From Octopus vulgaris (taxonomy: Eukaryota): DNA of 64,000 nt. Position numbers and translations under genes: made by a program. Shown here piece by piece: positions 44,747 through 45,080 of this stretch; the first letter of the stretch is position 1, and every line of letters begins with the position of its first letter. The stretch spans positions 49,104,001 through 49,168,000 of the forward strand of contig OX597832.1 of the NCBI GenBank assembly GCA_951406725.2, written 5' to 3'. The notes under the pieces are model-generated. The model ran no database searches and was not told the origin of the DNA. It saw only the letters and a program-made list of their open reading frames with translations.

Positions 44747-45080
44747 TATCTGTAAATATAATATGGGACAATTATTCAGTAGGCATGATAAAACTCCGAG
44801 TTTCGGATGTCGGGGCGGAAACCCACGCCGCCATCTCTTCAGTTATCCATTTACAATAGTGCTTGTTTATAGGAGTGCTTGGAAAGAATGTTTGTAGCAT
44901 TTTTTCGATGGCCCGATAACTGAAGAGATGGCGGCATGGGTTTCCGCCCTACGTCCGAAACTCGGAGTTTTCTCATGACTACCGAATAATTGTTACATAT
45001 CATATTTACAGATAAATTCCTCTATTTACATAATATCGAGGTCTCTTTCATTCTTTTCTTGTCTTGCCATTTTCTATCAA
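44747..45080. mobile_element. Fold-back insert with hammerhead ribozyme in each arm (arms 44747-44847 and 44915-45014)
   Basis: About 100-bp arms, 67-bp spacer, about 65-bp tail, TA tracts on both sides. Confidence 0.8.
44787..44847 (-). ncRNA. Type I hammerhead ribozyme (best-preserved copy)
   Basis: GATAA CTGAAGA GATG GCGG CGTGGGTTT CCGC CCCGA CATC C GAAACT CGG AGT T TTATC: stem I 5 bp, canonical core, stem III 3 bp, GUU triplet; mirror copy at 44915-44973 (+). Confidence 0.75.

Follow-up and report, generated by a model that had tools for sequence, protein, structure and literature searches.

A head-to-head pair of hammerhead motifs in Octopus vulgaris, very probably a dead insertion of a high-copy PLE

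Introduction

Hammerhead motifs on the two strands of one short hairpin can be read as a ribozyme pair in which each copy meets its own antisense, or as the residue of a mobile element. This question is raised by positions 44747-45080 of a 64,000-nt window of Octopus vulgaris DNA, the window being the whole stretch analysed here. The element is very probably a dead insertion of a high-copy Penelope-like retroelement (PLE), composed of two 5'-truncated 3' ends lying head to head between TA repeats. Taken singly the locus matters little, being one of thousands of copies and a decayed one. It apparently adds a hammerhead-bearing, high-copy PLE family that is uncatalogued and has a slightly odd stem II junction, and the 64-kb window illustrates the frequency of inverted PLE ends in this genome. 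The layout of hammerhead pairs on opposite strands is itself already described (Cervera and De la Pena 2014, PMC4209133).

Architecture of the inverted repeat

The element is surrounded by AT-rich, repeat-rich animal-type DNA. Its two arms, 44747-44847 on the minus strand and 44915-45014 on the plus strand, are inverted to each other. Alignment of 44749-44847 with 44915-45012 gives nine substitutions and one gap over 99 columns (89/99 identical). The whole 334 nt fold into a single hairpin of -170.5 kcal/mol (z -19), a value equalled by 0 of 100 shuffles. An earlier note on this DNA, which described a divergent pair in one hairpin element, was right in this respect. Family membership was assessed by comparing 44747-45340 (594 nt) at 80% likeness with four of 24 listed public runs, among them X1, X8 and the RNA run X24. 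The features are as follows.

44437..44748, no strand: (TA)n/(TG)n microsatellite tract, continuous with the left end (sequence)
44747..44847, minus strand: short arm, a 3'-terminal piece of the repeat family without the tail (reads, alignment)
44787..44847, minus strand: type I minimal hammerhead motif (sequence, folding, descriptor)
44848..44894, no strand: 47-nt spacer at the inverted junction, differing from the common family sequence (read depth)
44895..45080, plus strand: long arm, the last 186 nt of the family at its 3' end; it comprises the tail and 20 nt ahead of stem I (reads, alignment)
44915..44974, plus strand: second hammerhead motif, damaged (folding, descriptor, reads)
45015..45080, plus strand: tail of ~66 nt, on the right arm alone, family sequence (X1 depth of 0.85-1.0 million at 45007-45046)
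45081..45090, no strand: (TA)5 at the right end (sequence)

To judge from its sequence, the TA/TG microsatellite is the likely insertion target. The short arm is 5'-truncated precisely where stem I begins and ends 44 nt past the predicted cut site; U17 is 44 nt from the outer end in the short arm and 111 nt from it in the long arm. The family itself continues upstream at both inner ends. Behind 44847-44849 other sequence follows in 71+41 X1 contigs, 85 X8 contigs and 42+29 X24 reads, and loose read ends before 44895-44902 indicate the same for the long arm. The spacer is rare, with a summed depth over 44867-44886 of 972 (X1) and 3996 (X8) versus ~0.6-1.1 million at 44767-44826 (X1), and no further copy of it was found in the 64-kb window. 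At the other end, loose ends at 45061-45073 pass from the tail into TA repeats. Since the family ends in such repeats near 45061-45080, its terminus falling at about 45074-45080, the right arm holds the full family 3' end and the left arm stops ~66 nt short of it.

The two hammerhead motifs

Both arms, read outward, show the core CUGAAGA followed by a long stem II and GAAA, then stem III with its nine letters and finally the GUU site, and the hammerhead core consensus (C3 U4 G5 A6 N7 G8 A9 / G12 A13 A14, A15.1-U16.1, H17) is present in both. On the minus strand, stem I pairs 44847-44843 (5' strand) with 44791-44787 (3' strand) in 5/5 Watson-Crick pairs. The core comprises C3-A9 at 44842-44836, G12-A14 at 44804-44802, A15.1 at 44801, U16.1 at 44793 and U17 at 44792, and the GUU site places the predicted cut at 44792/44791. 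The perfect stem I, complete core and GUU site that the earlier note had assigned to the minus copy, together with its cut position, therefore stand. The long stem II carries a bulged C beside G10.1-C11.1, and the nine letters of stem III form a 4+1+4 palindrome. The long stem II and the 9-nt stem III depart from the classic hammerhead shape. An ATG opens stem II, and its frame, read from the sequence, closes in about 20 codons. Covariation in stem II is possible (44830 C>U with 44816 G>A, minus strand), a matter that per-site frequencies cannot judge.

The plus core is likewise intact (44920-44926 and 44957-44959, with U17 at 44969). Its stem I retains 4/5 pairs, being broken by a U.C opposition that stems from C44972, and its stem II is weaker. 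The family majority at 44972 is A, in 421154/425938 depth units (X1) and 59/71 reads (X24). Both arms also deviate from the family majority at an equivalent downstream position (44783 and 44978).

A descriptor was built from the core, a stem II of at least 3, a short stem III, UH and a stem I of at least 4 Watson-Crick pairs. It matched the window three times (44842-, 33827- and 33899+), and the plus copy at 44915 failed it. No match occurred in 60 block-wise dinucleotide shuffles, an optimistic control because the descriptor was designed after the motif was known. The Rfam search of the window returned no hammerhead family, either at gathering score or in 15 matches with E<=10; its sole match at gathering score was a tRNA.

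Predicted folds and the antisense arm

For the minus arm as a monomer, the hammerhead fold was computed at -12.3 kcal/mol versus a minimum of -16.2 kcal/mol. The minimum is not a hammerhead: there the palindromic pairing also takes in A13, A14, U17 and a part of stem I. The plus arm is less favourable, at +0.4 kcal/mol for the hammerhead fold versus a minimum of -16.0. Neither isolated arm folds better than its shuffles (z 0.31 and 1.08). Stem III was computed at +2.1 kcal/mol as a hairpin versus -9.7 kcal/mol as a two-molecule duplex, and the combination of an unstable hairpin with a stable self-duplex would be a mark of a dimer-type hammerhead. The traits of the PLE minimal hammerhead, a palindromic short helix III, a long helix II and a short helix I, are all present. 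Lunse et al. 2017, as cited in PMC6765202, reportedly dealt with dimer cleavage. In the minus-arm dimer, an active-like shape reaches -38.5 versus a minimum of -46.3, a gap of 7.8 kcal/mol, and the plus arm is worse. In these computations the active shape was not found as the most stable fold for either arm, as monomer or dimer. Of the earlier claim that each arm encodes a full, well-formed hammerhead, the core and the GUU site survive in both arms. The broken plus stem I, the bulged C of the minus copy and the lack of a minimum-energy hammerhead in either speak against the remainder. Failure of the isolated 44787-44847 to cleave, which had been offered as a refutation, would not disprove the identity of the motif, since one minimal PLE hammerhead did not cleave in vitro as a monomer (PMC4209133) and that of the Anolis PLE did so only in the presence of its protein (PMC11167929).

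In a transcript of the full element, from either strand, the core is predicted to be paired at a probability of at least 0.999 and the hammerhead pairs to have a probability of 0. The core would be buried because of the geometry of the inverted arms, and the head-to-head layout implies that the antisense arm would always be transcribed first. The suggestion that pairing of the ribozyme with its own antisense could suppress cleavage is thus upheld by prediction. Nothing suggests a regulatory design behind the masking, which an inverted and truncated PLE insertion would be expected to bring with it as a by-product.

The repeat family in public reads

Matches to 44747-45340 comprised 9170, 1135 and 7147 contigs and 597 reads (X24), the 9170 and 7147 contigs coming from two DNA runs. 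Part of these matches belongs to a different repeat at 45224-45340, where a second very high-copy repeat, unrelated to the hammerhead element, begins. Summed depth in X1 amounts to ~0.6-1.1 million over 44767-44826 and to 0.85-1.0 million over 45007-45046, with single listed contigs at 21-83. The hammerhead family is thus very high copy, summed depth not being a copy number.

The joints listed (15 of 111, with 12 of 64 between-letter rows) include joints that link the left arm to the right arm on the same strand, at 44799-44902, 44812-44900, 44815-44905, 44830-44905, 44847-44895 and 44848-44899. These positions indicate further inverted copies that are joined elsewhere, with the caveat that an inverted repeat compared at 80% likeness may yield misplaced joints. 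Loose ends of other copies also pass into (TA)n.

In the RNA run X24, 10/597 reads are at least 99% identical and depth is similar in both directions. The reads thus derive from other copies and are uninformative on this locus. RNA ends did not accumulate at any place over 44747-45340, an accumulation that such libraries seldom show. Places with A>G/T>C were not in excess over those with C>T/G>A (27/34 versus 34/29), so no claim of editing is made. Scans with 16-26-nt patterns matched 6 metagenome and 9 viral loci by the pattern only, with no homology beyond it (short matches in 10/15 loci), and tail patterns gave 0 matches in genome contigs and 0 in viral contigs.

A Pfam scan covered 121 of the 159 window ORFs retained after filtering for complexity; the 9 shortest ORFs were left out, as were 29 located largely within SINEs or tandem repeats. 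An RT or GIY-YIG family was found in 0/121, and 3/121 gave weak, unrelated matches below the cut-off. No gene was recognised near the element among these ORFs. In EN+ PLEs of the Hydra clade the ORF combines an RT with a C-terminal GIY-YIG domain (RWK and DKT motifs, no CCHH); 5' truncation would be expected to remove such an ORF.

Foldbacks of the same layout in the window

Three further foldbacks share the layout; in sequence they show no relationship, the best pair reaching E 0.02.

33468-34148: young element of a different family, built head to head from arms 33578-33841 and 33885-34148 (264/264 identical) with a 43-nt spacer
55391-55930: older foldback (176/199 alike), decayed hammerhead-like motif with core at 55499 (minus strand), TA at both ends, one-sided extension
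10113-10464: old foldback (129/160 alike), its left arm retaining the remnant of a hammerhead-like motif, its right end at TA

The hammerheads of 33468-34148 have C3 at 33827 (minus strand) and 33899 (plus strand), a 6-bp stem I, a 4+1+4 stem III and a GUU site, with an unpaired A on each side of stem II. The left arm bears a tail of ~110-120 nt, and (TA)n flanks the element on either side. The minimum-energy dimer is close to a double hammerhead (-31.8 versus -30.0), whereas the gap at 44747-45080 is 7.8 kcal/mol. With its identical arms, this element would, on the modelled energies, be the better bench candidate, a rank that the earlier note had given to 44747-45080. It offers a clean substrate for asking whether PLE hammerheads cleave as dimers or depend on protein, and how a head-to-head insertion is formed.

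A GTAAGT donor-like site follows stem I in 33468-34148. A fifth, weak and short foldback (~71%) lies at 40082-40224, where no motif was recognised.

Relation to published elements

PLE insertions are strongly truncated at the 5' end and are frequently accompanied by a truncated copy in inverted orientation, with a tail of 30-40 bp on one side; PLEs of the hammerhead-bearing Hydra clade target (TA)n (Craig et al. 2021, PMC8557442). The head-to-head arrangement is the most frequent inverted form (PMC3846280). The present element shares with the Hydra clade a type I hammerhead near the 3' end, (TA)n targets, an inverted 5'-truncated copy and variable junctions. Most Hydra-clade hammerheads combine a first core of 8 nt with a 4+1+4 stem III, and an additional base frequently precedes GAA (PMC8557442 File S2). 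The nine letters of stem III are here those of Hydra-2_Amil (Hydra-2_aMil) and Penelope-16_HM. Hydra-1_Obim (Hydra-1_oBim), from Octopus bimaculoides, has the same 8-nt core as the present element, followed by ATG, and U at position 17. In Penelope-13_HM the motif occurs on both strands via an inverted copy, as here (PMC8557442). Unlike Hydra-clade elements, the present one has no ORF; its stem II is longer and GC-rich, with a bulged C absent from the File S2 rows examined, and its one-sided tail is of ~66 nt instead of the 30-40 bp reported (PMC8557442). Outside the core, the 3' end of Hydra-1_Obim differs by eye from that of this element, and short-motif searches of consensus sequences from PMC8557442 did not find the family.

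Dual minimal hammerheads of metazoan PLEs lie on opposite strands, 100-700 bp apart, and are tied to truncated PLEs; in vitro, the minimal form did not cleave as a monomer and had low activity as a dimer (PMC4209133). A long helix II, a helix I of 4-5 bp, a palindromic helix III and thousands of dispersed copies are common to these hammerheads and the present family. The published consensus has an unpaired base between 9 and 10.1, whereas the extra base is here on the 3' side of stem II; the 33.8 kb element has one on each side. No cephalopod was seen in the examined part of Table S1 (PMC4209133). In the Anolis Poseidon element PAc, the tail is accounted for by RT starting at two internal sites, and the hammerhead was active only in the presence of the element's protein (Frangieh et al. 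2024, PMC11167929). AT-rich targets and an ATG at the start of stem II are common to PAc and the octopus element. In PAc, however, the ATG opens an ORF and the tail is of 30-40 bp, in contrast with the soon closed frame and the longer tail here (PMC11167929).

Non-LTR retrozymes, which are non-autonomous PLE derivatives (bioRxiv 10.64898/2026.07.22.740005), resemble the element as non-coding animal repeats with type I hammerheads (PMC7229834; bioRxiv 10.64898/2026.07.22.740005). They are head-to-tail tandems, in contrast to the single head-to-head pair found here. Assignment to them was rejected, the window containing an inverted self-match only and no direct copy.

The Octopus vulgaris genome holds 6.83% Penelope-like DNA in 190 families (PMC13282606), and the sequence library of that study may already contain this family; the main text of this repeat paper mentions hammerheads 0 times. 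In the literature on hammerheads in octopus or cephalopods, no study of the family was found.

Origin of the element

A PLE-derived insertion is favoured because the architecture is that of the published PLE pattern, namely an inverted 5'-truncated copy, a tail at one end and (TA)n targets. Membership of the Hydra clade in particular is only somewhat better than an even prospect, since no RT or GIY-YIG ORF was found linked to the element. The following course of events would fit the observed anatomy, high copy signal, one-sided tail, TA ends and decay. The GIY-YIG endonuclease of the element would have nicked a (TA)n tract, and reverse transcription would have started at two nearby sites near the RNA 3' end, giving one tailed and one tailless arm. 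Both cDNAs would have stopped early and been joined at their 5' ends, head to head. In the active parent, the hammerhead may have been weakly functional, as a dimer through its palindromic stem III or with the help of a protein. Read-through RNA of this copy is predicted to form a long double-stranded hairpin burying both ribozymes, as a by-product. The spacer 44848-44894, the length of the tail on the right arm and the stop of the left arm exactly at the 5' edge of stem I do not follow from this account.

Other origins are less probable. The unit could be a short PLE derivative of SINE or MITE type, non-autonomous and mobilised, as a hairpin or as a short hammerhead RNA, by PLE enzymes supplied in trans; the two-arm form would then be the mobile one. 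Four such foldbacks with no PLE coding remnant in 64 kb, their short spacers (47 nt here, 43 nt at 33.8 kb), the very high copy signal and the description of retrozymes as such derivatives (bioRxiv 10.64898/2026.07.22.740005) would agree with it. This origin is nevertheless unlikely: junctions vary among copies and the spacer is rare, as fits a fresh truncation at each insertion, the family extends upstream of both arms, and strong 5' truncation suffices to explain the missing coding sequence. A little further off still, and rather speculative, is a broader proposal in which several unrelated, very high-copy families of short hairpins, each made of two divergent hammerhead PLE ends, would spread as non-coding units at about four per 64 kb. 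They would be a major source of long dsRNA for A-to-I editing, and their ribozymes would be silenced by their own antisense.

The long inverted repeats, the TA at both ends and the want of coding capacity recall a foldback or MITE-type DNA transposon with TA target sites, in which the hammerhead-like motif would have arisen by chance; a TA target duplication is indistinguishable inside a TA tract. Such an origin is very improbable. The arms are unequal, and ~66 nt of extra family sequence at one outer end means that the repeats are not terminal and equal. The inner junctions are variable, and three sequence-unrelated foldbacks (no pair better than E 0.02) show the same asymmetry and hammerhead motifs. 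Least credible of all, by a small step, is a ribozyme switch selected by the host, with the antisense arm controlling cleavage. It would draw on the predicted masking and the intact minus core; yet 10 differences have accumulated between the arms, stem I of the plus copy is broken, both arms are off the family majority at the same downstream position, no gene is recognised nearby and the layout is a known by-product of insertion. The dead PLE insertion thus remains the preferred reading.

Other repeats of the window

Tandem arrays of a ~185-nt unit, which presumably resembles a tandemly amplified SINE-like repeat, lie at 1469-2244, 48992-49687, 52650-53114 and 60968-61511, with many single partial copies elsewhere; the CTGANGA core was not found in the arrays. 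At 62911-63264, 66-nt direct repeats (62911-62976 and 63199-63264, 95%) flank a GC-richer stretch with a hairpin, in which CTGANGA words at 63039 and 63120 fail the hammerhead descriptor. Broken frames at 29512-30015 (minus strand) and 50732-51590 (plus strand), which by eye we take to resemble the C-terminus of a CR1-type LINE and a restriction-like-endonuclease LINE, respectively, had no Pfam match. A tRNA-like sequence at 10963-11034 (minus strand, 41.4 bits) is probably a pseudogene or a SINE head. A dispersed SINE-like family of ~450 nt occupies 9434-9962, 12966-13407, 19750-20133, 42648-43114, 59321-59746 and 63795-64000. A MITE-like element of ~445 nt is present in three copies that are 87-91% alike (43499-43946, 47872-48325 and 59952-60375); its terminal inverted repeats are perfect over 27 bp (43503-43529 / 43919-43945), and TTAGGG-like repeats lie inside it.
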